DNA of 64,000 bases from Caldisericia bacterium (GTDB lineage: Bacteria > Caldisericota > Caldisericia > B22-G15): assembly GCA_030018355.1 (NCBI GenBank), contig JASEFN010000004.1, positions 152,291 through 216,290 of the forward strand, read 5' to 3'. Below the pieces are notes generated by a model that did no database searches, had not been told where the DNA came from, and saw nothing but the letters and a program-made list of their open reading frames with translations. Shown one piece after another: positions 1,870 through 36,288 of this stretch. Both the position numbers and the translations under genes were made by a program. Position 1 is the first letter of the stretch. Each line of letters starts with the position of its first letter.

Positions 1870-1937
1870 ATTTTGTCTCTCCTTTCTTTTTTATAAAAAT
1901 TTTATAATAATCTTGTGTTAAAATTAATAAAAGGGAG

Positions 1938-2270
1938 GTGTTGAAAATGAATGGAATAATTCTTAGTTTCTTTTTAAGCATAATTCTATTAATAAGGCTT
2001 CTTCCACTTAATGCAACAACTAATTTAATAGTTAACATAATTTCTGGAGTACTTTTTATTTTACTTGGTTTGTCTGAAGTTAGTGAAAAAGGTTGGAAAG
2101 CTTATATCATATCTTTTGTTGGTCTTCTCTTTATAATTACTTCATTTTTCCCAAAGTTGAGAATAGGAACAAACTATATTACCATTACAATTATTTTCTG
2201 TCTAATAATTATTGCAATATCACTTTATACAGAAACAAAATTATTTAAATTTAAAAGGAAAAAAGAATAA
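1938..2270 (+). CDS. Small hydrophobic membrane protein (3-4 TM), unknown function.
   Basis: A strong RBS (AAGGGAGGTG) sits 7 nt upstream of the ATG, and the sequence has a hydrophobic helical composition. It lies in a divergent intergenic position. Confidence 0.4.
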   Translation: MLKMNGIILSFFLSIILLIRLLPLNATTNLIVNIISGVLFILLGLSEVSEKGWKAYIISFVGLLFIITSFFPKLRIGTNYITITIIFCLIIIAISLYTETKLFKFKRKKE

Positions 2271-2273
2271 ATT

Positions 2274-3440
2274 TTAGAAAAATAGTTTATTTATTATTTT
2301 TTCTATTTGTGAATAAACTTTATTTAGAGGTAAATTTTTCTCTTCTGCAATTCTTTTTATATCTTCATATTCAGGTGTGATCTTTTTGTTATCTCCAAAA
2401 TAAGAGATTTTAACTCTAATTTTTCCAAACTCTGTATCAATTTCTTTTATCTCTCTTTTTAAAAAAATTTTTTCAACTTTATTTATCCTTACTCCAATTG
2501 AAGATGTCTCTCTAAAAATAAAATCTATCAAATCACTTTTATCTTTTTCCTCACACAAAATAGAAATTTTATATGCTGGTCTATTTTTTTTCATATATAT
2601 AGGAGTAAAGAAGAGATCAAGTGCACCTAAGGAGAATGCTTTTTCCATAATAAAGCCAAAAATTTGTGGATTCATATCATCTATATTTGTTTCAATTAAG
2701 ATATTATAATCTTTTAAATAATCCTCTTTCAACTCACCAACAAAAATTCTTAAAATATTTGGTATATCAAAATCTTTTTCTCCCAGACCATAACCTATTT
2801 TTTCAATTCTCATTAATGGGACATCTCCAAAAGTTTCAGCAAGAGTTGTAATAATTGCAGCACCTGTTGGAGTTGTTATTTCACCAATAACTCCGTTTGA
2901 ATAAATTGGTACTCCTTTTAAAAGTTCTAAAGTCGCTGGTGTTGGAACTGGAAAAACTCCATGAGAGATTTTTACAAAACCGCTACCTACTGGAACTGGT
3001 GATGAATAAATCTTTTCAATATTTAATATCTCTATACCAACAACAGAACCAACAACATCAATTATTGTATCTATTCCACCAATTTCATGAAGATGTACAC
3101 TACTTTTATCCTCATTATGTATTTTTGCTTCAGCATCAATTAATCTCTCTAAAATTTTAATGCTTTTCTCTTTAACACTCTCTTTTAATGAACTTTTTTC
3201 AACAATTTTTATAAGATCAACTCCTTTTCGTTCCTCTTCTTTTTCATAAATTTTTATGTCAAATTTTGTACCAAAAATTCCTTTTTTCTCTTTCTTATTT
3301 GCTTCTAAATCAAAACCTTTTAAATTTAATTTATTAATCTCCTCTTTTAAATCTGATAAAGAAAGACCTGCATCAAGAAGTGAACCAATTATCATATCTC
3401 CACTTACACCATTTACTAAATCAAAATAAGCAATATTCAT
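2274..3440 (-). CDS. larC: LarC-like nickel insertion protein (UPF0272/DUF111). CTP-dependent nickel chelatase of nickel-pincer nucleotide (NPN) cofactor biosynthesis.
   Basis: N-terminus MNIAYFDLVNGVSGDMIIGSLLDAG is characteristic of the DUF111/LarC family. It is 388 aa and overlaps larB by 4 nt in a larE-larB-larC operon. Confidence 0.7.
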   Translation of the reverse strand: MNIAYFDLVNGVSGDMIIGSLLDAGLSLSDLKEEINKLNLKGFDLEANKKEKKGIFGTKFDIKIYEKEEERKGVDLIKIVEKSSLKESVKEKSIKILERLIDAEAKIHNEDKSSVHLHEIGGIDTIIDVVGSVVGIEILNIEKIYSSPVPVGSGFVKISHGVFPVPTPATLELLKGVPIYSNGVIGEITTPTGAAIITTLAETFGDVPLMRIEKIGYGLGEKDFDIPNILRIFVGELKEDYLKDYNILIETNIDDMNPQIFGFIMEKAFSLGALDLFFTPIYMKKNRPAYKISILCEEKDKSDLIDFIFRETSSIGVRINKVEKIFLKREIKEIDTEFGKIRVKISYFGDNKKITPEYEDIKRIAEEKNLPLNKVYSQIEKIINKLFF

Positions 3441-4192
3441 TCGCTCTCTCCAATTTTATTTATTAAACTTGCTACAAAACCTGCTCCAAAACCATTATCA
3501 ATATTTACAACTGCAACTCCAGGGGAACATGAATTAAGCATTGTTAAAAGAGCACTGACTCCACCAAAATTTGCTCCATAGCCAACACTTGTTGGAACAG
3601 CAATAACTGGAACATTTACCAATCCACCAACAACACTTGGAAGAACTCCATCCATTCCTGCTACAACAATAAGAACTTTTGCTTCTCTTATTTTTTGTAG
3701 ATTATCAAAAAGCCTATGAATTCCTGCAACTCCAACATCATAAATTTTTTCAACACTATTTCCCATAATTTTTGCAGTTTCATATGCCTCTTCTGCAACA
3801 GGAATATCAGAGGTACCAGCAGTAAGAATTATAATTTTTCCTACTTCTTTTGGTTTTTCTTCACAAATTGAAATTGTTTTAGCAAAAGGATTAAATTCAG
3901 CATTTTCTATTTTATCTTTTACAAGTTTAAATAAATTTTCGTTTGCTCTTGTTGCAAGAATTTTTTTTGATTTCTCATAAAGTTTTAAAATTATCTTTAA
4001 AGCATCTTCATCTTTTTTTCTTTCACAAAAAACAACTTCAGGAAAACCTTTTCTTATCTCTCTTAAGTGATCAACTTTTGCAAAACCAAGATCTTCATAA
4101 GGAAGTTCTTGAATAATTTTTAATATCTCTTCAAGATTAATTTTATTTTCTTTAAAATCCAATAAAATCTTCTTTAAATAATCTAAATCCAT
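3437..4192 (-). CDS. larB: LarB-like pyridinium-3,5-biscarboxylic acid mononucleotide synthase (PurE-like carboxylase).
   Basis: C-terminal PurE/AIR-carboxylase-like domain (IIILTAGTSDIPVAEEA...VGVAGIHRL...VIAVPTSVGYG). It is 251 aa and is operonic with larE and larC. Confidence 0.7.
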   Translation of the reverse strand: MDLDYLKKILLDFKENKINLEEILKIIQELPYEDLGFAKVDHLREIRKGFPEVVFCERKKDEDALKIILKLYEKSKKILATRANENLFKLVKDKIENAEFNPFAKTISICEEKPKEVGKIIILTAGTSDIPVAEEAYETAKIMGNSVEKIYDVGVAGIHRLFDNLQKIREAKVLIVVAGMDGVLPSVVGGLVNVPVIAVPTSVGYGANFGGVSALLTMLNSCSPGVAVVNIDNGFGAGFVASLINKIGESE

Positions 4193-4998
4193 TTTAAACT
4201 TTTAACCAAATTTTTATTTTTCTCTTTATTGTATCCATTTAAATCAACAAAAACCTTCTCAAAGCCAATTTCTTTTAATTTTTGATTTATTTTATCACTG
4301 TTTTTAAAAACAATCTCTAACTCCTCTTTTAATACTTCAATTTTTGCAAAATTCCCTAAAATTCTTACCCTTATAAGAGATAAACCTAAATCTTTCAAAA
4401 ATGTTTCTCCTTCTTCAATTTTTTTTAGTTTTTCATAAGTTATTTTATCTTTATATGGAATTCTTGTTGCAAGACAAGATTGAGGAGGCTTATTCCAAAT
4501 AGGAATATTAAATCTTTTAGCAAGTGATCTTATTTCATCTTTGGTAAATTTTAACTCAAGAAGAGGAGAAATTATTTTAAGTTCTTTTAGTGCTTTTAAG
4601 CCAGGTCTATAGTCACTCAAATCATCAAAATTTGTTCCATCTAATATATTTTCAAAACCTAATGAATGAGAAAAATTTAAAATTTCTGAAAAAATCCTCT
4701 TTTTACAAAAATAACATCTCTTTTCACTATTTTTAACTATTTCTTCATCATCCAAAATTTTAATTTTAATAATAAAATTTTTTATTTTTCTCTCTTGAGT
4801 AAATTTTTTTATGAACTCAATCTCTTCTCTTTTTTGAAACTCACTATCAATTGTTATTGCAATTACATTATCATTTAACACTTCATGTGAGAGAGTTAAA
4901 AGGAACGTTGAATCAACACCACCAGATGAAGCAATTGCAACTTTTTTAAGGCTTTTTAAATAGTTTTTAAGATTTTCTAATTTCTCCTCTAACTCCAT
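4183..4998 (-). CDS. larE: LarE-like ATP-dependent sulfur transferase (PP-loop ATP pyrophosphatase).
   Basis: PP-loop SGGVDS motif near the N-terminus (VAIASSGGVDSTFLL). It is 271 aa and is the first gene of the lar operon. Confidence 0.7.
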   Translation of the reverse strand: MELEEKLENLKNYLKSLKKVAIASSGGVDSTFLLTLSHEVLNDNVIAITIDSEFQKREEIEFIKKFTQERKIKNFIIKIKILDDEEIVKNSEKRCYFCKKRIFSEILNFSHSLGFENILDGTNFDDLSDYRPGLKALKELKIISPLLELKFTKDEIRSLAKRFNIPIWNKPPQSCLATRIPYKDKITYEKLKKIEEGETFLKDLGLSLIRVRILGNFAKIEVLKEELEIVFKNSDKINQKLKEIGFEKVFVDLNGYNKEKNKNLVKSLKWI

Positions 4999-5004
4999 TA
5001 AAAT

Positions 5005-5313
5005 TTATCTATCCTCTTCTTCTCCTAAATCCTCTTCCCAAATATCTTCTTCGTCTTCTTCCTCTTCTTCAAATTCTTCTTCAAAATCTTCTTCAATTTC
5101 ACTTATTATATCTTGAAGACTATCTTCTCTTTCTCTTATTTTTTCAATCAAGATTTCTCTTAATTCATCTTCATCATATAACTCTTCTAAAATTTCAAAA
5201 ATGTCGTAATTGTCAAGTGTTTGGAGTTCTTCGTAAATGTCATCAATTAACTCTTTTAAATCTTCATAATCTTTATAACTTTTTAAATCTCTAATAAGAT
5301 CTTCTATTCTCAT
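5005..5313 (-). CDS. Hyper-acidic small protein (102 aa; more than 40% D+E; poly-Glu C-terminal tail). Function unknown.
   Basis: An RBS (AAGGAGAG) sits 6 nt upstream of the ATG. The sequence ...EEDFEEEFEEEEEDEEDIWEEDLGEEEDR is not low-complexity in its first 70 aa, which are predicted helical. It lies 7 nt upstream of larE on the same strand. Confidence 0.5.
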   Translation of the reverse strand: MRIEDLIRDLKSYKDYEDLKELIDDIYEELQTLDNYDIFEILEELYDEDELREILIEKIREREDSLQDIISEIEEDFEEEFEEEEEDEEDIWEEDLGEEEDR

Positions 5314-5381
5314 ATTAACTCTCCTTTTTTAAAAGAAATTACATTTTATATTTTACAAGTTTTTAAAGATTTTTAAATATA

Positions 5382-6149
5382 TTAATCTCTTATTTTTGGT
5401 TCATAAAATAGTTCTATAAAACTATCCCAATATGATGGAAGTGTATCCCATGGATTTGGTTCAGAGTCATCTGTACAATAGATAAAACCAATATTATCTG
5501 ATTTATTAATAACTATTTTTGTTTTCTCAAAGTTTTTAACATCATAAACCAAAACTGCAAAGCGACTTCTTGGATAATTTTTCACATATTCAGGAAATTT
5601 ATGTTTTAAAAAATTTGAATAGTTATCTTCAAAAATAACAATTGTATCACCTATTTTCTCTTTTAAAAACTCTTCATCAATAGAAATTCCAGGATTTAAA
5701 ATAACCCACTTAAACCCTCTCTTTTTAGCATAGTTATAAATTTCTTTATAATATTGAATTGATTCAGAGGAGTTATTTACCTCATCGTAAAATATTCCAA
5801 ATAAATTGTAATTTTTATAAAATTTTAAATATTTTTCAACATCCTCTTTTACTTTGTCTAAATCTCTTTTTCCATAATTTGTTGGTATATAACAAAAAAT
5901 TTTAATTCCTTTAATATTTATAAGAGATAAACCAATCTCATAATCTGGATTGATAGAATCTCCTGGCCCATCATCTGGATTTATAATTACCCAAATTTCA
6001 GTGTTTTGGTGTGTATCTTTTAGTCTTTTCCATTGATAAGATTCATCCCAATGGTTTGGATAGATATAAAAGGGAAAAAGAACTCTTTTATTAACAAACA
6101 AAATACTTCTTATATCACTAATAAATATCAAATTTAAAATTATAATCAA
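5382..6149 (-). CDS. Spherulation-specific family 4 (Spherulin-4)-like protein with an N-terminal hydrophobic signal or anchor. Putative glycoside-hydrolase-like TIM barrel.
   Basis: A hydrophobic N-terminus is followed by FPFYIYPNHWDES...VIINPDDGPGD...PWDTLPSYWDSF. This resembles the conserved YxYP...W/NPxxGPG blocks of the Spherulin4 family. Confidence 0.4.
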   Translation of the reverse strand: MIIILNLIFISDIRSILFVNKRVLFPFYIYPNHWDESYQWKRLKDTHQNTEIWVIINPDDGPGDSINPDYEIGLSLINIKGIKIFCYIPTNYGKRDLDKVKEDVEKYLKFYKNYNLFGIFYDEVNNSSESIQYYKEIYNYAKKRGFKWVILNPGISIDEEFLKEKIGDTIVIFEDNYSNFLKHKFPEYVKNYPRSRFAVLVYDVKNFEKTKIVINKSDNIGFIYCTDDSEPNPWDTLPSYWDSFIELFYEPKIRD

Positions 6150-6880
6150 AAAATTATTTTTAAAAATAAATTTTTTAAAAACTCTTTAATCATTAATAAA
6201 ATTATAAAAAAACTTTTAAAAATTTCAGCACAAACAAGTTTATGTCCTGGAATTCTTTGAAAAAAATTCTTAAAAATTGATTTTAAATAATTTTTAATTA
6301 GTTTTAATCTTTTAGGCAAGATATAACAAAGAATATTTAGGATACAAATTAATTATACAAACTTTGATTCTAATCTTTTCTTTTTTTACAAATTTCTTAC
6401 TTTCTGTTATGGAGTTAAAAATCAAAATTTTTACAATAACTTAAAATAGTTGTTGTTTGAAAATTCCTAATTACTTTCTTAAGAATAAATAATATGTGCA
6501 ATGAGGAAAAAATATTTTATTTTTTGTGCTATTTTAGAGTATGTTAAAAAGGTATGAGCAACGAATATCTGAGCTACTTTTGAATTACAAATTATAAAAG
6601 GAATTACAATTTTTCTTTTTTTTGAAATATTTATTATACAAATTGCTTCAACTACTTTATCCAAAATAATTGTTTTTTATAAAAAATAATATCTTATTCG
6701 TGTAAACTTAGAATCATTCTCCAATTATGAGACTTATTTTAATGAATAGTAAAATCTTTTAAAATTTTTATTTTTTCATTAACTTTAATATAGAAAACTC
6801 TTTATTAAAAAATAATTTATTTTTAAAAAATTTTGATACTTGTTTAGAAAAGATTAGTTCATCATGTATAATAAAATATT

Positions 6881-9418
6881 TTATTCATTTAATAATTCTA
6901 TACCTGCTTGTTCAAAAGCCTCAAGAACTTTATCTTCATATTCAGATTTTGTTATTTTTCCTTCTTTTGCCTCAATTTTTAACTCAACATTTACATTTTC
7001 AAATTTCTGATTTATAAAGTGTAAAACATTTGCAACATCAACTAATTTATTTTTAGGAATTTTTAATTTCAATTTAATTTCATTCATTAAATTTTGATCT
7101 TTTATTACAACTTCTGGTGGTTGTGGTTCTATCATTATGTTATTATCTACTTCAACATCAATTAAAGTTTGTGATTCAACAAATTTTTCTTCTTCTTTTC
7201 TACACAATTTTTTGTTTATTAAAAACATATCTTCGATTGATTCATTTGTTATATCTTCATTGAAAAATTTACATTTAATCTCTTCACCCTCTTTATAACC
7301 AATTCCAAACAAACCATTCTTCACACCATCTTTTATGCCCTTTAAAATAACTTCATCATTTTTAATTCTCATTTCACCTGGGGTTTTATAAAATAGTTCA
7401 ATAAATGATTTTATTTCTATATACTCTGAATTTTTTAAATATTTTTCTTCAATTATTTTTGCTGATAATTTTTCAAGAATTTCTTCATCAACTTTTAATT
7501 TTTCATATATAACAGAATCGAGGTATGCTAATGCACCATATGTTGGAATACCAAGATTTATTTCTTTAAACCCATATTTATTTGGAATAGAAATTAATCT
7601 ATAATAACTCATTAAATTAAACGAAGAACTGGATTCATTATTTTTTATTTTTACTAAAATATTATTTTTTTGATTTTCTGTTAAATTATAAGTACTTTCA
7701 TTTTTTAATTTTTCGTAAGCAATTTTATCTTTAATAAAATTTTCGATATTAATTTTCTCTGATTCCATAGGATATGAGAATATTAGTGTATTTTTATAAA
7801 TTCTTGGCCTCTCACCATAATTTTCATATATTTTTTGAATATCATCCTTATTTTTTAATATCACAAGTTTTAATCTCTTATCATCAGGAATATCATTTGA
7901 AAAGTTTGGCCAAATCTTAATAACAAATTCTGATTTTGAAGAAATTGTTTTTTGAATTAATTTTTTTAATTCTTCCTCTATTTCATTATTTGTAATATTC
8001 TCTTTAATAGTAAGAATAACTCTGTTTAAATTTGGTTGATTTGTGAAAAATAAGCCACTATCTGAAAGATAAAATAGTTTCTCTTTGAGTTTTTCTATTG
8101 CTTCAACAATTATTGCGCTTGATTCTTTTGGTATCACAGTTGATAATTTAATTTCATTCATTGAGGCCCCTCTTTCTTTTCCGCCAGAAAATGAATATAA
8201 AAAAATTGTTGTTGCTATTTTTGTTCCAAGACTATATGAAAGATAAGATATGCCTAAATCTTTATCAACAATTTTTGCACCTGAATTAAAAGATGTGATA
8301 TCAGCAGAAATTACACTATCATATTCTTGACCAATGTGTTTTATTAATTCTCTTCTTATTTCAGTATTATTTAAATCAAAATCTGAAATTCTAATGAAGG
8401 GTATTTCTTTTTTTAGAAGAGAATGAACAACTAATGCAAGTATTCTTAAAACCCCTCTTGTTCTTTGAAATGTTGGAAAACTCCCCCATCGTTTGTATAA
8501 AACATCAATAACTTCGGGTTGAAAAGGATAACTTTTTATAAATTTTTCTCTATATAAACTTTTTTCAATACCTTGTGGTATCAAATTTTCTCTCTCTAAA
8601 TAATCAATATAATCATCAATAACCTTTTTTGCTTCATGCTCATCAATATAACTAAATAATCTTCTTTTTATCACATCTGCAACTTCTTCATCTTTAACTG
8701 GAGTATAAATTTTCTCTATTCTTCCGACAATCTTCTGAAGTTGCTGAAAAACTTTTTCTCCAGTTTCATCATAATGTTCAATTATGCTTGATGGAAGGGA
8801 TAAAATTAAAACTGCATTACCAATTGAAGAAATTGATTGGGTTAATTCTTGAATAAAAGCAAGAGTTTGGGCAGCTAAATTTGAATCACCAACCTTAACT
8901 CCAGATGCTTTTGTCAGATATTCAAGAACCTCATCCATAAGAATTAAAATTGGTAGTTTATTTTTAAGCAAATTTTCTATATTTTCTCTTCCTGGTGAAA
9001 CCTTTTGTTTTAGTTTTTCAACTTTTCCTGTTAATTGTTTTTCCATTTCTTCCCATAATGTTGTATCCTTCGGATTTAAAACTGTTCCATCGATTACAAC
9101 TATATTTACATTTTTTTCTTTCGCCTTATGATAGAGTGCTATTAATGAATGAGTTTTACCACCACCAAATGGAGTTTGAAGTTGAATTACAGAATCACCT
9201 ACTCCTGAAAATAATCTTTTTTCAACAACATCTATCAGATTTTTAAGTCCATCAGTTAAATAAGTTTTTCTAAAGAAAATATCACTATTTTTATATTCAT
9301 CTGGTGCTTCACTTGTATGAACTTTCCAAAGGTCTGCTGCAAAAACATCCATTGTAAGTCTTCCTTCAAGGATGTCATTGTGAGGCCTTGCAATTTTTAA
9401 AAAAGATATATTATTCAT
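6881..9418 (-). CDS. DUF499-family P-loop ATPase. This is the third gene of the helicase-methylase-ATPase module.
   Basis: The N-terminus [13 protein letters not shown]...APDEYKN...[11 protein letters not shown]...[12 protein letters not shown] matches the DUF499 signature and includes a GGGKTHS Walker A. A Walker B motif [12 protein letters not shown] is present. It is 845 aa and overlaps the upstream methyltransferase gene by 4 nt. Confidence 0.65.
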
Positions 9419-12111
9419 TTATAAGGCAACCTCCCTTCTTCTTTTATTTCACTTATTAATTTATCTTTTCCTGATAAAAATCCATCTAAAAGTTTCTTCT
9501 CACCACTCTCAGGAGGAAGAGTTTCTGAAATTGCTTGAGCAAATCTATAAAAAGAGTCTCGAATTCCATAACCTGAATCTTGTAGAACCGTTTTAATTTC
9601 ATTCTTTTTTCCTACTTTCCATAAAAGTAAAACATTGTGAAGAATATCAACCATCTCTTTTGAATCTTTAAGTTCTTTAATTTCTCTTTCATTTGGACCT
9701 AAAACTTTTATAAATTCTTTTTCTTTTTTTATGAAACTTTTATTCCAAACTTTTTCTAAATCGATTCCTACAGATTGAGCGAGTTTTTTTGCTTCATCAA
9801 ACTCAACTTTTACCTCTCCATAAGTCCATCTATATAAAAGATAAAATTTTGAAAGTGGAGAAAGTTCTTGAGATATTCCATTGTGTAAAATTTGTTTAAC
9901 AACATAATCTGTTACAATTTCTCTTACAAATTCCAGAAGTTTATCTGCTCTAACAACATTTCCTTCAAAATCAAGAACTTTTTCATATTTACCGAAAATT
10001 TCAATTGATGAACCAATTGCTGAAATAAAATAATCTGCACCTGAAATTCCTTCGTTCCATAATTTTTCAAGTTTTTCAAAAATATATTTTTTTATCTCTT
10101 CTTTTACATCATTAAACCATCCAACTTCAATCTTTTGAATTTTTCGAGCAATAATATAGATAGATGAAGCAAGAGATGCTGTCTCTTTTGCATTTAATCT
10201 TGATTTCATCTCTGTGTCAATTGGCCACGACGCAGTAATTACTAAACCAGAATCTAAAAGTGAATTTATAAGAGTTTCCCAACCAAATGTTGATTTATGT
10301 GTATAAACTATAACTGCAATACCATTTGGTTTTAAAATGCGATATATTTCTTGTAGTGCTTTTTTTAAATTTTCTTCATAAAACTCTTTTGCTTTTTGTT
10401 CTCCACCATGTCTTACTGGATTAGCAACAATTTCTTTTGATTTTGGAGTAAGTGGAGTTGAAAAAAGTTCGGGGTATAAATCACCAATAGATCTTTTTAA
10501 CCAAACATAAAAGAAATCTGAAAGTTCAGCATAATTGATATTATCATAATAAGGTGGATCTGTAAAAACAGCATCAAAATAGTTATCTGGATATGGAAGA
10601 GAAATGGCTGATAATTGTGAGATGACTGTAGGGTAAGAAATTTTTGAGATATTTTTTATAGATTCTAATATTGGCTCTAAACTCCATTGACCTCTTGAGT
10701 CACTAAATGGATCAGCTTCACCATAATCCCAAATCATTGGAAGTGCTTGCCTATCAAATGCTCTTTCAAAAGATATAACATCAGATCTCCATCTTGTTAA
10801 TGTATTCAGATACGTTACTAATCGATCTATTCCTATACCTAAATAACTCGCCACTGCTTTTGCGTATTCTTTTTCATAACCTTCAGAAATCATCTTTTGA
10901 TATGCTTGTTTTACTTTTTCTGTAAGAGTTATTAGTGCGAGTTTCTGGCGAGAATTAAAAAGATCACCCCATTTTGTAAAGCCATAACCCCGACCAGCAA
11001 CAGTATTAGGGTCTTTGGTGTTCATTTCCTCATCTGGCACAGGATCAATTCTCCATTCATTCATAAGTTTTTGTCTTTTCTCTTGAAGATATTTTTCTGC
11101 CTCTTTGAAAATCTCAAAATCTCTTTCATTTGCAAGGCGATATGTTTTTCCATCTTTGTTTGGTTGATGCAAAATAACTGCTATCATTCTTTGCCCTGAT
11201 TTTCCTTCTTGAAAAAGTTTTCTTACTTGTTTATCATCAATAACAGTTCCACAAACTGGACATGTTACAATTGCTCTTGAAACAGTTCCTTTTTCAGGAT
11301 TAAAATTTTCAGGAAATGGTTTATTATCTTGCCCAACAATTTCAAACTCAACTTTATTGTTTCTAACAAATGGTCTTAATGATATTTTTTTATTATTCTT
11401 TTTAGCAAGCCAAAATTGTCGCATTAAAGGAATCTCTGCATTACAAGACGGATTTTGACATGGTATTGTTCTTGCCCAAATATATCCAACAGGAATTTTA
11501 CCATCTGGATCATTTGGATAAAATTTTCCAATCTCTTTTTTTGCTTCATTTACAACAAAATTCCCCCATTTTTTAACATCTTCAAGAAGTATATTATTTA
11601 CATATATTTTTTTTATTTCTCCTTTTTCTATAGGTTCCCCTTTAATCAAAATCTCACCTGGAACTCCATATTTTTGTGGATATTCGAGAGTACATTTTAA
11701 TATAAGTATTGCAACGGGATTATATTCATTTGCATAAGTTTCAAGACCAAGTCTTAAACATTCAAGAGGAATTGAACCTCCTCCTGCAAATGGATCGATT
11801 ACTTTTAAATTTGAGTTTCCATTTGCTTTTAAAATATCTTCTCTTGCTTTTTTTATTATTTGTTCATTTAATGAATTTTCCCATTTTGAAAGATTAATTA
11901 TAAATTTTTTCTTTTCTTCCAACTCTTCTCTATTTTTTGGTGCTGGTATAAGTGCAGCATAAGATGTTGCTCTTGATGAAGCAAGTGGTCTTCTTGCCCA
12001 CCAAATGTGAAGAGTTGAAATATGACCATGCCTTATGTTTTTTTCTCTTGAAGCCTCTTCTCCAACCTCTTTCACTGGAAAAGTTTCCTCAATAAAACTT
12101 TTCTTGATCAT
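9415..12111 (-). CDS. DUF1156/COG1743 Zn-ribbon-containing adenine-specific (amino) DNA methyltransferase.
   Basis: N-terminus [38 protein letters not shown] is the DUF1156 hallmark. It carries MTase motif I (DPFAGGGS), motif IV (DPPY) and a Zn-ribbon (CQNPSC...CPVCG). It is 898 aa, with 4-nt overlaps on both sides. Confidence 0.7.
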
Positions 12112-15100
12112 CCAACTTCTCCTTTATTTTTGATTTCATTTTCATTAATAATAAATTTTATATCAACAATCTTTTGAAGTTTCTCTATATTTTCATAGGG
12201 GTTTTTAATAATTCTTAAATCTGGCTTATTTACTACATTAAATACAACATAAAGATAATAATCATCTTCGAATCTTTTTGCTTTTAGAAATTCATTAAAT
12301 GTTAAAATAATATCTCCATAATCTTTTCTTGCTTTAACTTCAATATATCTTATCTCTTTTTCACCTTTTGATTTTATATCATATCCAAGATTTTCTTTTG
12401 AAACATCAATTGGTTCTCTTCCATGTTCTTTTTCGTATTTAATAACATATTCCATTCCCATTCTTTCAATTTCTTTATCGCTTTCCATCATATCTTTTGA
12501 TCTAGGTTTTACATAAATTACTCCAACAAGTTTTGGTTTAGAAATAGTTAAGTTTTTTTCATTCTCAAGTTCTTCTTCAAGTTTTTTCTTTGCTTCTTCA
12601 TAATCTTTTTTTCTTTGTCCCATATTTTCAAACCTTTTATTATTTAATTTATTATTCTCAATATATTTTATCATTTCTATTTCAAGTTCATTAATTAAAT
12701 ACTCAAGTGATTTTATACCATATTTCCTTTTGATATCTATTTGTCTTAATCTCTCCTTTAAAAGTTCATCTTTATATTTTTGAATTATTTCGATTGATTT
12801 ATTTATAACAACATCTTTGTTAAAATTTAAATTTTCTATATTAGATAGCGAATCACTAACTGGCTCCAAATCCCATAAAATAGATGGATTAACTTCAATT
12901 AAATTTTCACCATCATAATAAATTGAAAATATTTTTTTACCAACAACTTCGCCCAATCCATCTTTCACTTCTCCCTCATAAAAATAGATGAAGCCACAAT
13001 ATTTATTTTGAGGGTCTTCAAAAATTCCACCATTAAGTAATTCTTTATAATAATTTTTTAAAGACCATTCAATCATTGCCTCTAATAGTGGGTGACCAAA
13101 AGATATAAATTCTGCATCTGGATTTTTAAATGCCGTTTCTTTATCAAAAGTAATTTTTCTATAATTTCGTTGAATTGTGCCAAATTTAGATTTGAAATTA
13201 AAATCATTATTAAATTTTCGTAACTCATCTGGCACAGAATCTATTTCATAAAATTCACCCTTTTTTACTAATTTTCCATTTAAAATATTAAAAACTTTTT
13301 TAAAATACTCTTCTACATATTCTGGTATTAATCTATTTTCTTTCGCTTTTTCAGAAATTTCTTTTATTCTTGTAAAATCAATTATTTTTGTTGCAAGTGT
13401 TTCGCCAATTAATGTATCTTTTATTCTTCGAATATAATCTTCGTCAACTTTTATCTCAATTTCTTTTAGAATTTCATCAAGAGATTTTGTGTTTGATACT
13501 GCTTCAATCAAAAGTTGATAAAGATTTTTATCTTTGAAAACATCACCAATTATATCAAAGACTTTATCACTTCCTAAAGCTCTTCTTATTTCATCTAACT
13601 TTTCAAAAATCTTATTGAAAACTGTGCCTTCTCTTGTATCTACTGCTATAAGGTTAAAGATATGAACATCTTTTTGTTGTCCATATCTATGAATTCTTCC
13701 CATCCTCTGTTCAATTCTATTAGGGTTCCATGGTATATCATAATTAATCATTAGATGACAAAATTGAAGATTAATTCCTTCTCCTGCAGCTTCTGTTGCA
13801 ACCATAACTTCTGTTCTATTCTTAAATTCTCTTTCTGCATCAATTCTCTCTTGTAAACTCATTCCACCATGTATACTATTCACTTCATAACCCCAAGATT
13901 TAATCTTTTTTACGAGATAATCAAGAGTATCTTTTGATTCAGTAAATATCAAAATTTTTCTATTTCCACCAATTTCATCAATTTTTTTAAAACCTTCTTC
14001 AATCGCTTTCTTTAATTCTTTTAATTTTACTTCTTCTTCATTGTTTATAATATCTTCTGCTTGCCTAATTAACTTATCAAGATTCTCAATCTCTTTTTTT
14101 AATTCTTGATAATTTTCAGCAACACTTATTGTCTCCCAATCTCTTTCTATCTTCCATCTCTCATTTTCTTCATAATCTTCTAACTCTTCAATTTTATTGA
14201 ATGAAAAATTGCTATCGCTTAAAATTAATTCTTCTTTTTTATTATATATTTCTTCTAATTTTCTTTTTCTTCTCTTAAGTGATTCATAAAGCGCATAAGT
14301 ACTTGATGCCATTCTTCTTTGGAGAATTAAAAGCGCAAAAGCAATATTTCTTTTTTTATCACTTTTTAATGCTTTATTATATTCCACAATAACATACTTT
14401 GATAATTCATTATAAAGCTCCTTTTCTTTATCTGATAAATAAAATTTTATAGTTTTTACAAATCTTCTTGTAAATAGAGGTTTTCCTTCAAAATCTCTTA
14501 AGTCTTCTTTCATTCTTCTTATAAATAAAGGGTTTTCTTTGTTTTTTATAGATTCTTCAATTAGTTCTTTTGATGCAAAAAAACCTGGATTAAGAAGATC
14601 AAGAAAAAGTCGGAAATTTTCTGGATCACCTTTGTGTGGTGTTGCCGTAAGAAACAAAAGATGTTTTGTGTTTTTTGAAATAACTTTTCCCAACTTATAT
14701 CTATCAGTTTCTTTTGATTTATCACCATAAAGATATGCTGCCATTTTATGTGCTTCATCAACAATTACCAAATCCCACTCTACACTCTCTAATGAGAGTA
14801 AAATTTCATCTTGTTTTGCAAAATCCATAGAGGTTATAATTTGATTATATTTTTGCCATGGATTTTCTCCATAAGAATAATTAAAGGAATTTCTATCAAT
14901 AATCTCAAAATTTTCTTTAAATTTATCTGTTAATTCTCTAATCCATTGTTCTTTTAAATGACCTGGAACAATAATTAAAATTTTTTTAACAATTCCTCTT
15001 AATTTTAACTCTTTTATAACAAGACCAGCCATAATCGTTTTTCCAGCTCCTGGATCATCTGCTAATAAAAATCTTATCTTTGGTAATTTAAGGATATAAC

Positions 15101-15422
15101 CATACACAGCCTCAATTTGAAAAGGAAGAGGATCAATTTTTGTTATGTTCATTGCAAGTAATGGATCAAAAATTGAAGCATATCTAAATCTTAAAGATTC
15201 TAAACTCAAAAATATATGGTTACTATTTGAATTGAAGTTGAAAACAGAAAGTTCTCTTAATTTGTTTAGATCTTCATTTGAAAATATTTGTCTTACTATT
15301 TGATTTGATAGTTTTTTTTCTACAACTAATTCAATATATGTATTTAAATTATTAATTGAAATAATTTCGACAGGTTCATTCCAAAGACCCTCAACAATCA
15401 TTCCTTCTTTAAGTTCAATCAA
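12108..15422 (-). CDS. SNF2/DEAH-family helicase with a C-terminal DUF3883-like PD-(D/E)xK nuclease-fold domain.
   Basis: Helicase motifs are present: motif [12 protein letters not shown], motif II VIVDEAH, motif [11 protein letters not shown], and a helicase-C region ...[12 protein letters not shown]... The C-terminal region ...[21 protein letters not shown]... fits a D...E-x-K nuclease motif. It is 1104 aa and is the first gene of a three-gene operon. Confidence 0.7.
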
Positions 15423-15866
15423 CTTTACCCTCCTTTTAATTGCTAATTATTAAAGAAAATTTTTTCATAATTGATTTTACCATTATTTTTATTTTTATGT
15501 CTCGAAATTTTAATTATTATTAATCTAAAATGTAAAGAAAGGTTTTGAAGAATAAACAATTTACATCTTTTATAATTACCTAATTTAGGAATTGTTATTT
15601 TAAATTCATCAATTCCCAAGAAGGATAATCTTCTACTATCACTACTCAAAACACAATTGAGTTCTAAGTATCTATATTATTTTATAACTTATTCAAATAA
15701 ATCTTAACATGTAATGCAAACTTATTTTCATTTAAAATTTTTTTATAAATAATTTTGTGGTTTCAGGATCTTTAAATATAAATTGTAACTTAAATTTTAA
15801 AAATTTTTAGAATTCTAAAATTAATTCATACTTTTAATAAATTATTTTCTCTAAAAACAACTGAAA

Positions 15867-15896
15867 GTTTCAATCCCTAATATGAGAACCAAAAAC
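15867..15896 (-). repeat. Orphan degenerate CRISPR repeat relic (GTTTCAATCCCTAATATGAGAACCAAAAAC), with 5 mismatches to the consensus.
   Basis: It is a 30-mer with the same ends as the array repeat (GTTTCAAT...AAAAAC). It is preceded by ...CTAAAAAC, a truncated repeat 3' end, and lies about 790 bp beyond the distal end of the array. Confidence 0.5.
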
Positions 15897-16687
15897 TTAT
15901 TTTTCCAAAACTTCTTCCTTTATCAAAATATCACTAAAAGTCAAATCACAATAAGTCTTCTAATAATTTTTTTATTTGGATAAAGTGAAATAAATAATAT
16001 TTTACAGAGAAATAATTGAAAAGAATTTTTTATCTTTGATCAAAATAAAACAGGATATTTAAAAAGAATTTGTTGAAAATTAAATTTTATTCTATTTTAA
16101 TTCTTTTAAAAATAAAGAACTCTATTTTTAACTATATAAATTTATATTTCATTAGCCTTAAACATTAATTTTTAATCTATATTTGTTAATACATATAATT
16201 TATTAGCCTACTAATTCAATATCTCTTTTAATTTTTGCTATAAATTTTATAAATTCATTTTGTCTTTTCTTTTATAGAAAAATTTTTTTCAAATGAGTCT
16301 TTTACACATATTTTCAATTAAGTAAACCTTGCTTCTAAAAAATGAATTTAAATTGTTTAGTTATAGAATTCCCAGATTTTTTGGTCCAGATCCATTTAAA
16401 ATCAATTATTTTTTCAATGCATTTTTGTTCTAAATTTTTGGAAAAAATTTAACCAATTCTTTAAATTTTTCTCTTTTCTTTTAATTTTTAATCTCTCTTA
16501 AAGAGATATAAGAGTGATTTCCAAAAATTTGACTTCTTTTGATCTTTTAAAGAAAAATAAATTTCACAATAAAGTGCCCCATTAGTTAAATAATCTCAAA
16601 AAAATTTTACAATCCGCTCATTTTAAAAGAAGTAATTTGACACTCAATTCTTTCAAATTTTACATTTTTCGAAATATCACTCCAAAA

Positions 16688-19600
16688 GTTTCAATACCTT
16701 ATTGGCGAGCTAAAAACATGTTATATCTTGTTGTAATGTTTACAAATCTGGGGTGCGTTTCAATCCCTCATAGGTGAGCTAAAAACAATTCAAAATTTAG
16801 AAGAAAAGGTTGTCTTATTATAGTTTCAATCCCTCATAGGCGAGCTAAAAACACCTGATAGCGAAAATAAAAAGGATGATGAAATAGAGTTTCAATCCCT
16901 CATAGGCGAGCTAAAAACCCTAATTCTCTAGAGATGTTTAAAGAAATACAAAACTAGTTTCAATCCCTCATAGGCGAGCTAAAAACCAAAAATTTTTGAA
17001 AATTTAAATCAAGAGGATTTAAAGGTTTCAATCCCTCATAGGCGAGCTAAAAACAAATTATTTTGTTTGGTTCCAAGAATTGTTATCCATGGTTTCAATC
17101 CCTCATAGGCGAGCTAAAAACGTAGTAATATCCTTGTATTTTAGTTTTGCGTACTCTGGTTTCAATCCCTCATAGGCGAGCTAAAAACTAATTTTCATAA
17201 TTATAAGTAGAGTTATTGTTTTGCCAGTTTCAATCCCTCATAGGCGAGCTAAAAACCCCGAGACTTTTGTAAATGCTCTTAGAATAGACAAGTTTCAATC
17301 CCTCATAGGCGAGCTAAAAACCTTTTAGTTTTGAACAATTTAGACAACATATTTATTACAGTTTCAATCCCTCATAGGCGAGCTAAAAACCTTATAATGA
17401 GCCTCATCTTGACCCTAATGTTGAGATAGGTTTCAATCCCTCATAGGCGAGCTAAAAACGAAAAGAAAGAGAGTACTATGAGCTTCAGAGAGCATAGTTT
17501 CAATCCCTCATAGGCGAGCTAAAAACCTATCATTACAGCACCACAGAAATCCGCTATATCCTTGTTTCAATCCCTCATAGGCGAGCTAAAAACTTGTTGT
17601 TGTTGATTTACCAAAAAATAAGGAGAAGGTTTGTTTCAATCCCTCATAGGCGAGCTAAAAACAATATTTGGTACGGAAATGACTCTTTAGGGCTTTTCTG
17701 TTTCAATCCCTCATAGGCGAGCTAAAAACTTTGTCCAATTTTCCCAATAGTTAAAGTAGCACTTAGGTTTCAATCCCTCATAGGCGAGCTAAAAACTATT
17801 ATTATTTGAAAGGAGGTGAACTATGGAAGCAATGTTTCAATCCCTCATAGGCGAGCTAAAAACTTTACCTATTGCAATCCAATTCACAGTTGTTGTTCCG
17901 TTTCAATCCCGCATAGGCGAGCTAAAAACTAAGATTTCATATCTATTTGATTATTTTCTAAAACAGTTTCAATCCCTCATAGGCGAGCTAAAAACGAAGT
18001 TTAAATATAGGACTCAAAGATTTAGAAATTTCAGTTTCAATCCCTCATAGGCGAGCTAAAAACTCGCTTAATGATCTAAAAACAAAATAATATTCTGCGG
18101 TTTCAATCCCTCATAGGCGAGCTAAAAACAGATATAGAAAATATTAAAGATTTAAAAGAGATTTCTGTTTCAATCCCTCATAGGCGAGCTAAAAACGGAT
18201 TACACTTTTGGAAAAATTACAAAGATAAAAGGAGGTTTCAATCCCTCATAGGCGAGCTAAAAACATTTTGATCCCTCTTGACTTTTTAGAAAAATATATT
18301 AGTTTCAATCCCTCATAGGCGAGCTAAAAACTTTTTCTATTAGGATTAAGCAGGTGAATCATAAATAGTTTCAATCCCTCATAGGCGAGCTAAAAACTTG
18401 ACGAGTTGGTTGACAGGGAATTCTTCTTTATTGTTTCAATCCCTCATAGGCGAGCTAAAAACATCTTTAACACTTACATCCCATATATAATTCATTACAT
18501 GAGTTTCAATCCCTCATAGGCGAGCTAAAAACTTGAAATCTAAAGTAGCTCTTATAGGATTATATCCGGTTTCAATCCCTCATAGGCGAGCTAAAAACTG
18601 TCGTAAGACTTCATATCTATAGCATTATTTTCTAGTTTCAATCCCTCATAGGCGAGCTAAAAACTAAAAGATTATCATATTATTATCCATCCGTAAGTGA
18701 CCGTTTCAATCCCTCATAGGCGAGCTAAAAACTAAACACCTCCTTTCTGATATCAGGAAGCATCTTGTAGTTTCAATCCCTCATAGGCGAGCTAAAAACC
18801 CTTTCTGACCAAATTTTCCATACAAAGTATTGAGAGTTTCAATCCCTCATAGGCGAGCTAAAAACACGTTCGTTTTTTGTTCTTTTTCCCACGACAGCAA
18901 GGTTTCAATCCCTCATAGGCGAGCTAAAAACTTTGTAATTTCTTCTCTTATAGAATTTATTGATTCAAGGTTTCAATCCCTCATAGGCGAGCTAAAAACT
19001 ATATATGTTCTTTTATGCTCCTTTTCTATTTCTTCTAGTTTCAATCCCTCATAGGCGAGCTAAAAACTTGCAAGGTGGACAATTTATTTATTGGACTGAA
19101 AAACTGTTTCAATCCCTCATAGGCGAGCTAAAAACTAGAAAGTCTTAATTATCCTCAAAAAGAAAACACAAGTTTCAATCCCTCATAGGCGAGCTAAAAA
19201 CCACTTATCACCTCTTCATTTGCGTTTATATTAAGAGGTTTCAATCCCTCATAGGCGAGCTAAAAACAACTGAACAAAAATAAACATAAAGAATTTGAAG
19301 ATTTGGGTTTCAATCCCTCATAGGCGAGCTAAAAACTAAAAATTTACCTATTTCTTCAACAGATGTTCTATAAAAGTGTTTCAATCCCTCATAGGCGAGC
19401 TAAAAACCATTGTCAAGTCCATCTATCCAATCTGCTAATCTATAGTTTCAATCCCTCATAGGCGAGCTAAAAACAAGGTATAGCACAAAGCTCAATATTT
19501 CCTGAATCCCAAGTTTCAATCCCTCATAGGCGAGCTAAAAACATAAACTCAATTAAAAGTGAAATCACACAGATATGGAAGTTTCAATCCCTCATAGGCG

Positions 19601-22600
19601 AGCTAAAAACTGACTTCAATTCTCATAGGTATTGCTTCAGTATTGAGTTTCAATCCCTCATAGGCGAGCTAAAAACTTTACCCTCTATTTCTTTTTAAAC
19701 TTACTCATTCCTCGTTTCAATCCCTCATAGGCGAGCTAAAAACTGATTTAAGTTTAGATGATCGAGTGAATATTTCAAAGTTTCAATCCCTCATAGGCGA
19801 GCTAAAAACAACATCACCTTTGTATTCTCCTTTTCCAACATAAACAGTTTCAATCCCTCATAGGCGAGCTAAAAACTATTTTACGAAGATGACAATTCAG
19901 ATTTAGTTGAAGGTTTCAATCCCTCATAGGCGAGCTAAAAACAATATAAAAAATGTTTGCTGTTGTTTTCTTATAATACGGTTTCAATCCCTCATAGGCG
20001 AGCTAAAAACCAAAAGAACATAAATAATAATCTTTTGTGCAGCTGCAGTTTCAATCCCTCATAGGCGAGCTAAAAACCCCATCTCAGAGTTAAGAAAGGC
20101 ATTTCTGAATTATCGTTTCAATCCCTCATAGGCGAGCTAAAAACCTGCTTTCTTTTTACTTCTTTTCTCTACTTTATCAAGTTTCAATCCCTCATAGGCG
20201 AGCTAAAAACTACACACTAAAGAACCAGTTTTCCCAACTAAGTTAAAGTTTCAATCCCTCATAGGCGAGCTAAAAACTGAATAAAAATAAGTATAAAGAA
20301 TTTGAAGATTTAGGTTTCAATCCCTCATAGGCGAGCTAAAAACGCGACACTTTTAACTCATTCCCTTCACGTTCAAATGGGTTTCAATCCCTCATAGGCG
20401 AGCTAAAAACAATAGAACAGGAGACGACATTGGTGTAGTATATGAGAGTTTCAATCCCTCATAGGCGAGCTAAAAACTTGTTAAGTTTTAGAAAAACATT
20501 ACCATTGTTTTCGGTTTCAATCCCTCATAGGCGAGCTAAAAACCAGACGTAGAAGTTACTTTTACCCCTGAAACTATACCGTTTCAATCCCTCATAGGCG
20601 AGCTAAAAACTACCATAGAAAGGGATACCTAAAAAACTACGTACTGAAGTTTCAATCCCTCATAGGCGAGCTAAAAACTATTTAATTATTTTTTCTTTTC
20701 TACAAGAATATTTTTGTTTCAATCCCTCATAGGCGAGCTAAAAACTTTATATTATTCTTTTTCTCTATTCAAGCATATTTTGTTTCAATCCCTCATAGGC
20801 GAGCTAAAAACTTTATTCTCTTCTACCTGCTGTTATTGAAGAGCCGAGTTTCAATCCCTCATAGGCGAGCTAAAAACTTTTTGTCGATTTAGAGGATGAT
20901 GGGGTAATAGAAAGTTTCAATCCCTCATAGGCGAGCTAAAAACATATAACCCCCCTAAATAACCCTGGGGGTGATCGCAGTTTCAATCCCTCATAGGCGA
21001 GCTAAAAACTATTCAACATCAATAAATAATGCTGCTTCTCTTTCAGGTTTCAATCCCTCATAGGCGAGCTAAAAACTTAAAAATTTGTAATAATTACAAT
21101 TTACATTTTTAAGTTTCAATCCCTCATAGGCGAGCTAAAAACGAATTTAAAAGAGAAGAGCAAATTACACCATTCCAATGTTTCAATCCCTCATAGGCGA
21201 GCTAAAAACTAGTTTTAAAATTTGACATTCTGGCTATCTTATCTAAGTTTCAATCCCTCATAGGCGAGCTAAAAACTAACAAAAATTTTTCCACATGTCA
21301 ACCTAAGGATTTAGTTTCAATCCCTCATAGGCGAGCTAAAAACTTTCATCGCTAAATTGTATGCCATCTATTTCGTTAGAAGTTTCAATCCCTCATAGGC
21401 GAGCTAAAAACTCCTAGAAAGTGAAAAAAGAGATTATTAATATATCGTTTCAATCCCTCATAGGCGAGCTAAAAACTGAAAATACAAAACATAAACATAA
21501 CTATAAAAGACGGTTTCAATCCCTCATAGGCGAGCTAAAAACCAATTGGAACATTTAATATAATTCCAGAAATTACATTGTTTCAATCCCTCATAGGCGA
21601 GCTAAAAACTTAAGTTATTATGGAAATTATGTTGAAGCTGTTCGTAGTTTCAATCCCTCATAGGCGAGCTAAAAACATAAAAAGACCATGAATAAAATGA
21701 TACTTAATCCAAGTTTCAATCCCTCATAGGCGAGCTAAAAACATTTTTATACTCAAAACTTTTGAGCAACAATGAACAGTTTCAATCCCTCATAGGCGAG
21801 CTAAAAACTTATGAATGTTATAATGGTTAAAATATTGAGAGAGTAGTTTCAATCCCTCATAGGCGAGCTAAAAACGAATATAATTTGGGAAAAGATAGAA
21901 AATATTATAAAGTGTTTCAATCCCTCATAGGCGAGCTAAAAACTTTTATGAAAGAAATGTAAGAGATGCAAATAATCTTTGTTTCAATCCCTCATAGGCG
22001 AGCTAAAAACCTTTCAAGACGTACTAAAATAATTAAAGAGGGGTTGAGTTTCAATCCCTCATAGGCGAGCTAAAAACTAAGATATAGTTTTATAGTTGAA
22101 CCTGTATCTGTAAAGTTTCAATCCCTCATAGGCGAGCTAAAAACGGTGTAATGTAATATGTTCTATTTCTATAAAACATAGTAGTTTCAATCCCTCATAG
22201 GCGAGCTAAAAACTATGATAAATATTCAAAAAATTAATATCGCCAGAAGGTAGTTTCAATCCCTCATAGGCGAGCTAAAAACGAAAATAAATAATTTTTA
22301 AAGGTCCCATCCTACTGAGTTTCAATCCCTCATAGGCGAGCTAAAAACTTTTATTTATCATATTACAAGCTTCTCTCAAAGTTATGGTTTCAATCCCTCA
22401 TAGGCGAGCTAAAAACAAATTTTTCTGAAAAAAGAGCATAACAAGTATAAATAGTTTCAATCCCTCATAGGCGAGCTAAAAACAATATTCGAGATTGCAA
22501 ATTATACAGGAGGTATAAAAGTTTCAATCCCTCATAGGCGAGCTAAAAACCTTGAAGCATTAGCAATAATGAGTCCAGTTAATAAGGTTTCAATCCCTCA

Positions 22601-23939: not shown

Positions 23940-24203
23940 TTATATAACAATCTCAGAACCTCCTTTTTTTAAACCTATTATTTCTCTTTGTGAATACATG
24001 GTTGTTCTTAATATATAAAAAATAACTGAGTCTTCTTCTTTATTAATTACTCTTAAAATTTCAGATTTAAGTTTTTCATATTTAGCAATTGTTATTTCGC
24101 CTTCTAAAACAGAATTTTGTATCCAATTTAAATATTTTCTTCCTATTTTTAATACTTTATTTACTCTCCTTTCATTTACATCATAAACCATGATAATATA
24201 CAT
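23940..24203 (-). CDS. cas2: CRISPR-associated endoribonuclease Cas2.
   Basis: 87 aa. N-terminus MYIIMVYDVNERR... is typical of Cas2. It is the last gene of the cas operon, next to the leader. Confidence 0.85.
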   Translation of the reverse strand: MYIIMVYDVNERRVNKVLKIGRKYLNWIQNSVLEGEITIAKYEKLKSEILRVINKEEDSVIFYILRTTMYSQREIIGLKKGGSEIVI

Positions 24204-24207
24204 TTAA

Positions 24208-25694: not shown

Positions 25695-25695
25695 T

Positions 25696-28873: not shown

Positions 28874-28880
28874 TTTTTCT

Positions 28881-29918: not shown

Positions 29919-29940
29919 AATAATTAACCTCCTTTTTTAT

Positions 29941-32576: not shown

Positions 32577-32609
32577 TTTAATATTTTTAGGGTGAAAAAT
32601 AAGTTCCCT

Positions 32610-36156: not shown

Positions 36157-36288
36157 TAATTTATAAGTTTATTTTCATTTTACTATAAATATTCTATTAA
36201 AAAATTTTAAAATTATTCTAATTAATTATAATTCCTACAACTTTTAAAAAGGTTCCCATAATAGATTCTCCCTCCTTGATTTTAAATT

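Follow-up and report, generated by a model that had tools for sequence, protein, structure and literature searches.

We analysed a stretch of 64,000 nucleotides (hereafter the window) from an uncultured Caldisericia bacterium, and in particular a set of three genes that encode a helicase, a DNA methyltransferase and an ATPase and are designated here hmaA, hmaB and hmaC. Three long open reading frames (ORFs) are found at 6881-15422, all of them on the minus strand, and according to the ORF list both junctions consist of a 4-nt overlap, i.e. the start of hmaB overlaps the stop of hmaA and the start of hmaC overlaps the stop of hmaB, with no intervening genes. An initial annotation, made from the sequence alone, had described three minus-strand genes with 4-nt overlaps at exactly these positions. 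Judged from its genes, the locus is a complete and compact Hma operon, in other words a Type-1, DUF499-centred system of the kind related to bacteriophage exclusion (BREX).

The identification as a helicase/methylase/ATPase triad of the Hma type, which had also been proposed in the initial annotation, is borne out by the PADLOC database, where all three Hma models match near full length with E-values in the order of 1e-123 or below. The motifs that the initial annotation had quoted (DPFAGGGS, DPPY, GGGKTHS and IEVKARK) were all located in the translations. The checks that it had recommended with PADLOC and HMMER also turned out as it expected for the HmaA, HmaB and HmaC models, for DUF1156 and for NOV_C (formerly DUF3883), the exception being the Pfam model of DUF499, which is discussed below. 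All reading frames and catalytic motifs of the three genes are intact. The TTG start of hmaA is preceded at about 7 nt by a Shine-Dalgarno sequence, AAGGAGGG, as read directly from the DNA; we consider this start credible because of the ribosome-binding site and because homologues align from residues 1-4. The G+C content of the window is about 26%, and chance cannot account for ORFs of 845-1104 amino acids in such DNA whose profile matches reach E-values of 1e-123 to 1e-211. The coordinates of the genes and of the other features mentioned in the text are collected in Table 1.

Table 1. Positions of the hma genes and of other features of the window; positions are counted from the first nucleotide of the window.
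Feature	Position	Strand	Description
hmaA	12108-15422	-	1104 aa, TTG start; SNF2/DEAH translocase-nuclease
hmaB	9415-12111	-	898 aa; DUF1156-type N6-adenine (amino) DNA methyltransferase
hmaC	6881-9418	-	845 aa; DUF499-family, BrxC-like ORC/Cdc6-type AAA+ ATPase
Spacer between array and hmaA	15423-16687	-	1265 bp, non-coding, AT-rich; longest ORF 68 aa
CRISPR array	16688-23756		106 repeats (0 expected), 105 spacers; 30-nt repeat GTTTCAATCCCTCATAGGCGAGCTAAAAAC on the plus strand; not part of Hma
Type I-B cas operon	23940-33575	-	WYL regulator, cas6, cas8b, cas7b, cas5b, cas3, cas4, cas1, cas2 (Pfam, NCBIfam, PADLOC); not part of Hma
Two unassigned genes	33572-36156	-	655 aa and 206 aa
Phosphoenolpyruvate (PEP) carboxykinase gene	36289-38169
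larC	2274-3440	-	nickel-pincer cofactor biosynthesis cluster
larB	3437-4192	-	nickel-pincer cofactor biosynthesis cluster
larE	4183-4998	-	nickel-pincer cofactor biosynthesis cluster
Spherulin4-like gene	5382-6149	-	accompanies the lar cluster
Flavin mononucleotide (FMN) riboswitch	38978-39138	+	100.9 bits
S-adenosylmethionine (SAM)-I riboswitch	43962-44072	+	93 bits
tRNA	57776-57849	-

The first protein matches the PADLOC HmaA model at 2.9e-211 over residues 3-1076. In Pfam it is recognized by SNF2-rel_dom (1.7e-18), Helicase_C (5.3e-27) and, at residues 985-1072, NOV_C (PF13020, 7.5e-22). NOV_C is the present name of DUF3883 and belongs to the PD-(D/E)xK clan. The helicase motifs I (GAGKT), II (DEAH) and VI are at residues 125, 222 and 572, respectively, while the sequence IEVKARK at 1027-1033, preceded by D1015, provides the nuclease residues D1015, E1028, K1030 and E1044. 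These four residues are 100% conserved in an alignment of 41 sequences, and the same holds, in 35 sequences, for G125, G127, K128, T129, the DEAH box, Q572, R573, G575, R576 and H578-Q582; the non-catalytic motif positions A126, M574 and I577 are conserved to 94-97%. A helicase with a C-terminal PD-(D/E)xK domain resembling DUF3883 is thus what the first gene encodes, as the initial annotation had it, given the NOV_C match and the invariant residues. Among solved structures, the best sequence relative of HmaA is RapA, the alignment covering residues 19-290 and including part of the N-terminal region of RapA. The N-terminal part of HmaA is in this sense RapA-like. No PDB sequence was matched by the nuclease domain at E<=1 using a 31-sequence profile, and a single-sequence AlphaFold prediction of the C-terminal 144 residues was unusable (predicted local distance difference test, pLDDT, 38.9): the order in which its secondary structure elements follow one another would fit a PD-(D/E)xK core but carries no weight.

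The second protein matches HmaB in PADLOC at 2.4e-139 and, more weakly, PglXI, the methyltransferase of type-3 BREX (2.1e-16). Its Pfam matches are DUF1156 (PF06634, 9.3e-23, residues 11-66) and N6_N4_Mtase (8.5e-09). The S-adenosylmethionine-binding motif I, DPFAGGGS, is at residue 106, and the catalytic motif IV, DPPY, at residue 518. Four cysteines, C218, C223, C284 and C287, form a zinc ribbon inside the insert of about 400 residues that separates motifs I and IV, and we regard this insert as the putative target-recognition part of the enzyme. The DPPY motif and all four cysteines are 100% conserved in 35 sequences, as are D106, F108, G110 and G112 of motif I, with P107 and G111 following at 97%. 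In the initial annotation this protein was called a DUF1156 zinc-ribbon amino-methyltransferase; the DUF1156 region, the amino-methyltransferase motifs and the four-cysteine ribbon are all there, but the ribbon is located in the insert between motifs I and IV and not within DUF1156. The PDB sequence search returned no meaningful solved relative of HmaB.

The third protein matches HmaC (1.9e-123) and DUF499 (2.6e-33) in PADLOC, and DUF499_antiphage in NCBIfam at 4.1e-46, which is under the equivalog cut-off of that model. GGGKTHS is found at residues 85-91, with the Walker A motif GGGKTH at 85-90 and Walker B at D162-E163; the residues of both motifs are invariant in a 20-sequence alignment. 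Because Walker A is already reached at residues 85-90, the protein has no N-terminal HEPN domain. Further along, a variable, disordered linker (residues 742-775) is followed by some 65 residues that form a conserved C-terminal module. An AlphaFold2 model computed from the 20-sequence alignment had a pLDDT of 80.9 and a predicted template modelling (TM) score of 0.59, and Foldseek ranks two BrxC structures first for this model (9zll and 9zdx, E 1.8e-06, target TM 0.50), ahead of ORC/Cdc6, DnaA and other AAA+ proteins. The PDB sequence search gave no meaningful solved relative of HmaC.

It is conspicuous that the Pfam model of DUF499 (PF04465) does not match HmaC of the window even at E<=10. Pfam searches thus literally miss DUF499 in this protein, an outcome that the initial annotation had named as counting against its assignment. 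The result is overruled by the PADLOC and NCBIfam DUF499 models and by the homologues: PF04465 matches P0002, an HmaC homologue of 68% identity, at 4.2e-42; P0005 and P0029 are matched as well, and the homologues carrying PF04465 have 55-68% identity to the window protein. We therefore rejected the suggestion that HmaC is not a DUF499 protein, and the name DUF499 ATPase stands on this evidence but not on Pfam. The miss is probably an artefact of HMMER filtering or composition, as the protein is rich in K, I, N and E and is encoded in DNA of 26% G+C. If this is so, the Pfam DUF499 model can silently miss AT-rich members, and automated annotation of AT-rich genomes may under-call both DUF499 and Hma.

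The relatives of the triad were collected from a scan with one genome per species, which gave 568 relatives; 80 loci were fetched, of which 34 have the complete triad. In all 34, from bacteria as well as archaea, the genes are in the order A-B-C on a single strand. Thirteen of the 34 are as compact as the window locus, while in the other 21 inserts of 300 bp or more are found between genes, a share that agrees with the 62.7-66.5% of Hma systems reported in the literature to have embedded genes. For HmaC alone, over 6400 homologues were counted at E<=1e-10, and homologues with 50-56% identity are found in Methanosarcinales, Sulfolobales, Korarchaeota, Atribacteria, Ignavibacteria and others. 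Such a patchy spread is typical of mobile defence genes and is consistent with horizontal transfer. The exact HmaC sequence has an NCBI entry, 'MAG: AAA family ATPase [Caldisericia bacterium]', and is also present in two metagenomes of JGI (3300045074 and 3300045725) and in the SRA run SRR11868471. A few fetched loci depart from the common layout. In the MAG bacterium SKW194 (L024, 1-6702) hmaA comes downstream of hmaC, so that the order is B-C-A; in two Poribacteria loci (L025 and L053) no hmaA was found in the 10 kb upstream of hmaB and hmaC; and in L012 the HmaB match stretches over 5.1 kb, pointing to an insertion in the gene or next to it.

The PADLOC paper introduced the name Hma on the basis of genes that occur with Septu loci, and counted 1,638 instances in 26 phyla (Payne et al. 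2021, PMC8565338). The initial annotation had traced the system to Vibrio SXT elements, and here it was mistaken: a search of the SXT, Vibrio and defence literature gave no mention of Hma in its eight top-ranked papers, and the one Vibrio cholerae paper that names Hma refers to the Hma-embedded candidates of PADLOC and not to an Hma of SXT. More recently, triads of DUF499 protein, methyltransferase and helicase were described as BREX-related (BR) systems, Type-1 being present in 2446 taxa (Rakesh & Krishnan, NAR 2026, PMC12839542). In that survey Type-1 is characterized by a helicase fused to PD-(D/E)xK in 79% of cases and a HEPN-fused DUF499 protein in 56%, where the helicase additionally has a TUDOR domain at its N terminus and the DUF499 protein an RRM-like domain at its C terminus, whereas Type-2 has an N-terminal HKD nuclease and DUF3780, and Type-3 has PglZ and iSTAND (PMC12839542).

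Compared with this description, the window locus has the same three proteins, near full length by the PADLOC models, in the order A-B-C on one strand. All the features that could be assessed were found, i.e. an SNF2 helicase with a fused C-terminal PD-(D/E)xK domain of the NOV_C family, a DUF1156 methyltransferase with DPPY and a single four-cysteine zinc finger in its putative target-recognition insert, a DUF499 AAA+ ATPase, and co-orientation of the genes. The differences are as follows. HmaC of the window is of the canonical form, without the N-terminal HEPN RNase that about 56% of Type-1 DUF499 proteins carry; the locus has no embedded genes, as against about 63-67% of Hma loci that have them (62.7% according to Payne et al. 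2024, many of the embedded genes being defence systems); and it adjoins another defence system, which is reported to be untypical (Payne et al. 2024). The host phylum here is Caldisericota, and nothing essential differs.

The only Hma protein with experimental data is HmaA of Halomonas meridiana, and its similarity to the window protein extends over SNF2-rel, Helicase_C and NOV_C, the threonine of motif I, the arginine of motif VI and the D/E-x-K/E tetrad. D1015, E1028, K1030 and E1044 of the window protein are taken to correspond to D1084, E1104, K1106 and E1121 published for the Halomonas protein; the spacing from D to E is 13 residues in the former and 20 in the latter. In Halomonas, Septu (ptuAB) and an AAA_21 gene pair are inserted in the locus, whereas the window locus is contiguous. 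Halomonas HmaA alone protects E. coli from phage T4 about 100-fold, in a dormancy-like manner that fails at a multiplicity of infection (MOI) of 10; helicase motif VI and the four NOV_C residues are required, mutation of the latter abolishes defence as well as nicking, and the isolated NOV_C domain nicks supercoiled plasmid in the presence of Mn2+ (Liu et al. 2024, PMC11232893). The statement in the initial annotation that the mechanism is essentially uncharacterised is thus too strong, the more so as the triad has since been dissected domain by domain and classified, with a sense-modify-restrict model resembling restriction-modification (RM) being proposed for BR systems (PMC12839542).

In our opinion the operon is probably an RM-like anti-phage module in which HmaB marks self, HmaC senses and couples, and HmaA restricts. 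HmaB would methylate adenines at N6 in a short host motif and thereby label the host DNA. HmaC would bind and hydrolyse ATP and assemble on DNA, thereby linking the effector to the detection of foreign or unmodified DNA, and its variable C-terminal part may offer a surface for sensing or interaction; both suggestions are modelled on BrxC, in which ATP controls self-association as well as the binding of DNA (PMC13326643). HmaA would be the effector, its SNF2 part translocating along the double-stranded DNA of the invader while NOV_C nicks or cuts it, which would stop phage replication. Nicking and its necessity for defence are established for the Halomonas orthologue, and the invariant catalytic residues suggest the same for the window protein. 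As the 4-nt overlaps point to translational coupling, the three proteins are probably made in fixed proportion and may act as one complex.

Several observations weigh against this view. T4 grown on a host overexpressing HmaB was unaffected, and this is the only published test of self-marking by HmaB; about 15-20% of hmaA homologues have no hmaB or hmaC nearby; and the phenotype of the Halomonas system resembles growth arrest without lysis and not classical restriction (PMC11232893). The published experiments cover HmaA by itself and a host overexpressing HmaB, which leaves self-marking by HmaB and the role of HmaC conjectural. In the window itself, the HmaC model did not resolve the RRM fold that has been described at the C terminus of DUF499 proteins, its residues 780-845 (pLDDT 80-89) forming two helices with no strand assigned, and Pfam does not recognize the protein as DUF499. 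Moreover, this organism is known only from metagenome assemblies, and the case made here rests on its genes.

Some of the same data can be read in a different way, namely that HmaA is an autonomous sensor-effector comparable to Nhi or Hna, which senses a cue from phage replication or DNA structure and nicks supercoiled DNA, leading to growth arrest, with HmaB and HmaC as accessory regulators that would not serve to tell self from non-self. The protection given by HmaA alone, the lack of effect of HmaB overexpression, the hmaA homologues that stand without partners and the nicking of plasmid by the isolated domain irrespective of sequence context are all in keeping with it. We consider this possible but rather unlikely, and the same applies to its corollaries, i.e. 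that HmaC may restrain or license HmaA and that HmaB methylation may tune expression or target range. The order and co-occurrence of the three genes are strict in the 34 complete loci, which come from phyla of bacteria and archaea alike, and in the window they are translationally coupled through the overlaps. The catalytic residues of the methyltransferase are invariant, which would be unexpected in a dispensable accessory, and the triad parallels the logic of BrxC, PglX and BrxHII. The negative result with HmaB, finally, is weak because T4 DNA contains modified cytosines and the host was heterologous.

The parallel with BREX deserves closer attention. Type-3 BREX (BrxC, PglXI, BrxHII, PglZ, BrxA and BrxF) has a homologous core of ATPase, methyltransferase and SNF2 protein: HmaA matches BrxHII at 6.9e-110, and BrxC is the top structural match of HmaC even though the similarity is weak by sequence (0.0026). 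The BrxHII and PglXI matches agree with the relationship to Type-3 BREX described in PMC12839542. On the other hand, the helicase of the window bears its own nuclease and DUF1156 replaces the N-terminal element of the BREX methyltransferase, and neither PglZ nor BrxA nor BrxB/F was found with Pfam, NCBIfam or PADLOC among the neighbouring ORFs at 364-6149 and 23940-38837. One may ask whether the operon also works like BREX, i.e. by blocking phage replication mainly through ATP-dependent binding or remodelling at unmethylated sites by HmaC and the HmaA translocase, with cleavage as a minor or back-up activity. The BrxC-like fold of HmaC and the BrxHII and PglXI matches would fit such a mode of action, as would the Type-3 BR helicase, which has no nuclease at all (PMC12839542), and the partial defence at low MOI that the single mutant E1104A of Halomonas HmaA retained (PMC11232893). 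But the nuclease residues are invariant in the 41 sequences, the quadruple nuclease mutant of the Halomonas protein lost all defence (PMC11232893), and Type-3 BR puts PglZ, a reported nuclease, in the place of the nuclease, so that the effector slot seems to need one (PMC12839542). On balance, cleavage as a side activity appears distinctly improbable to us, and we retain the RM-like module, with HmaA as its nuclease, as the probable mode of action.

Two further families share components with the operon. The methyltransferase and ATPase families also occur in Type-2 BR systems (helicase with PLD/HKD, DUF1156 methyltransferase, DUF499 protein and DUF3780), and the respective NCBIfam models, DUF1156_antiphage and DUF499_antiphage, match at 8.1e-58 and 4.1e-46, far below their cut-offs. 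HmaA has no N-terminal HKD/PLD domain, however, as PLD_Helicase and phospholipD_antiphage match only the helicase core (residues 289-631); DUF3780 was not matched by any of the flanking ORFs scanned, and no gene is located between hmaA, hmaB and hmaC. The similarity of HmaA to DrmD of the defence island system associated with restriction-modification (DISARM) is high, 1.5e-149 with PADLOC and 1.1e-120 with NCBIfam, where the score of 404.7 compares with a cut-off of 610 bits. Unlike HmaA, DrmD has no NOV_C, and searches of the neighbourhood with Pfam, NCBIfam and PADLOC found none of DrmA, DrmB (DUF1998), DrmC (PLD) and DrmMI/MII. Membership in Type-2 BR, Type-3 BR, BREX and DISARM was therefore rejected, the partner genes or domains being missing.

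For completeness, the triad could be a housekeeping module of chromatin or DNA repair, or an inactive relic, and not a defence system. In favour of this, SNF2/RapA-like proteins have roles in transcription too, and the NCBIfam scores are under the equivalog cut-offs. We nevertheless hold a role outside defence, or a relic, to be extremely improbable. The intact frames and motifs speak against a relic; the homologues of 50-56% identity in distant groups are consistent with horizontal transfer; gene-sized inserts are frequent in related loci, and surveys in the literature report that such embedded genes include known defence systems. In addition, a CRISPR-Cas system adjoins the locus, and an orthologue has shown anti-phage activity (PMC11232893).

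We note that the locus brings little that is new for the field, as Hma has been in PADLOC since 2021 and has been the subject of one experimental paper and of the comparative-genomic classification of 2026. Its value lies in part in annotation, since three genes with generic names can now be labelled HmaABC or Type-1 BR. It also represents a clean, minimal Hma, i.e. contiguous, free of inserts, without HEPN and coupled by 4-nt overlaps, which would make it convenient for a three-protein reconstitution addressing the self-mark of HmaB and the role of HmaC.

The operon is part of a defence island, bounded by the PEP carboxykinase gene on one side and by the lar genes on the other. The neighbouring system is a type I-B locus of clustered regularly interspaced short palindromic repeats (CRISPR), as the initial annotation had recognized, although 'immediately next to' in this case means a non-coding gap of 1265 bp from the last repeat to the start of hmaA. 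The array is matched by CRISPR-DR2 of Rfam, scored on the plus strand, and its repeats are degenerate at the 16688 end. The decay of the repeats and a leader proximal to cas2 suggest that the array is transcribed on the minus strand, with ATTGAAAC as the 3' handle.

A conserved functional link between Hma and CRISPR was rejected, as a CRISPR-like array is near only two of the 80 related loci (L083 and L033, within the retrieved flanks), cas homologues being found in L083 only. Hma is not typically adjacent to other defence systems (Payne et al. 2024). We take the proximity to be clustering within a defence island and not a functional link. It is nevertheless conceivable that Hma and the unusually long, co-oriented array are coupled in this genome, either because nicking of unmethylated invader DNA by HmaA feeds acquisition by Cas4-Cas1-Cas2 or because read-through from the array co-regulates hma. 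Cleavage by RM systems stimulates CRISPR adaptation, and the predicted transcription of the array toward hmaA is what suggests read-through; still, we regard coupling of either kind as very unlikely. If true, it would be a natural model for the hand-over from innate to adaptive immunity by a BREX-related system.

The non-coding spacer upstream of hmaA is presumed to hold the hma promoter. A scan of 6000-16800 found a promoter-like TTTACA-18-TAAAAT at 15536-15507, and matches of this kind hardly exceed the number expected from shuffled sequence (83 vs 67.7). The same scan found no terminator after hmaC, which is uninformative in such AT-rich DNA, and a search of the whole window with Rfam gave no match in the hma flanks or in the spacer. 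The spacer also contains a decayed fragment of the CRISPR repeat, TTAGGGATTGAAAC, at about 15866-15880 on the minus strand; the distance is about 800 bp from the last repeat that can still be recognized, and about 450 bp to hmaA, which lies downstream. Its presence suggests that the array was formerly longer or that the hma operon was inserted beside an eroding trailer.

On the other side, hmaC is followed by a gap of 730 bp and then by metabolic genes, namely the Spherulin4-like gene, larE, larB and larC. This minus-strand cluster (2274-6149) also holds an ORF of 102 amino acids without a family, and a lactate racemase gene, larA, was not recognized in any of the ORFs scanned. Two unassigned genes are located immediately upstream of the gene for the WYL regulator, and the nearer one overlaps it by 4 nt. 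The 655-residue product has sub-threshold P-loop matches of the AAA_16/NACHT kind (E 1e-4), the 206-residue product belongs to no family, and neither gene is matched by PADLOC or NCBIfam; the pair could be a STAND-like defence pair or an accessory of cas. Elsewhere in the window, the FMN and SAM-I riboswitches are located upstream of plus-strand operons, and there is a tRNA gene on the minus strand (Table 1).

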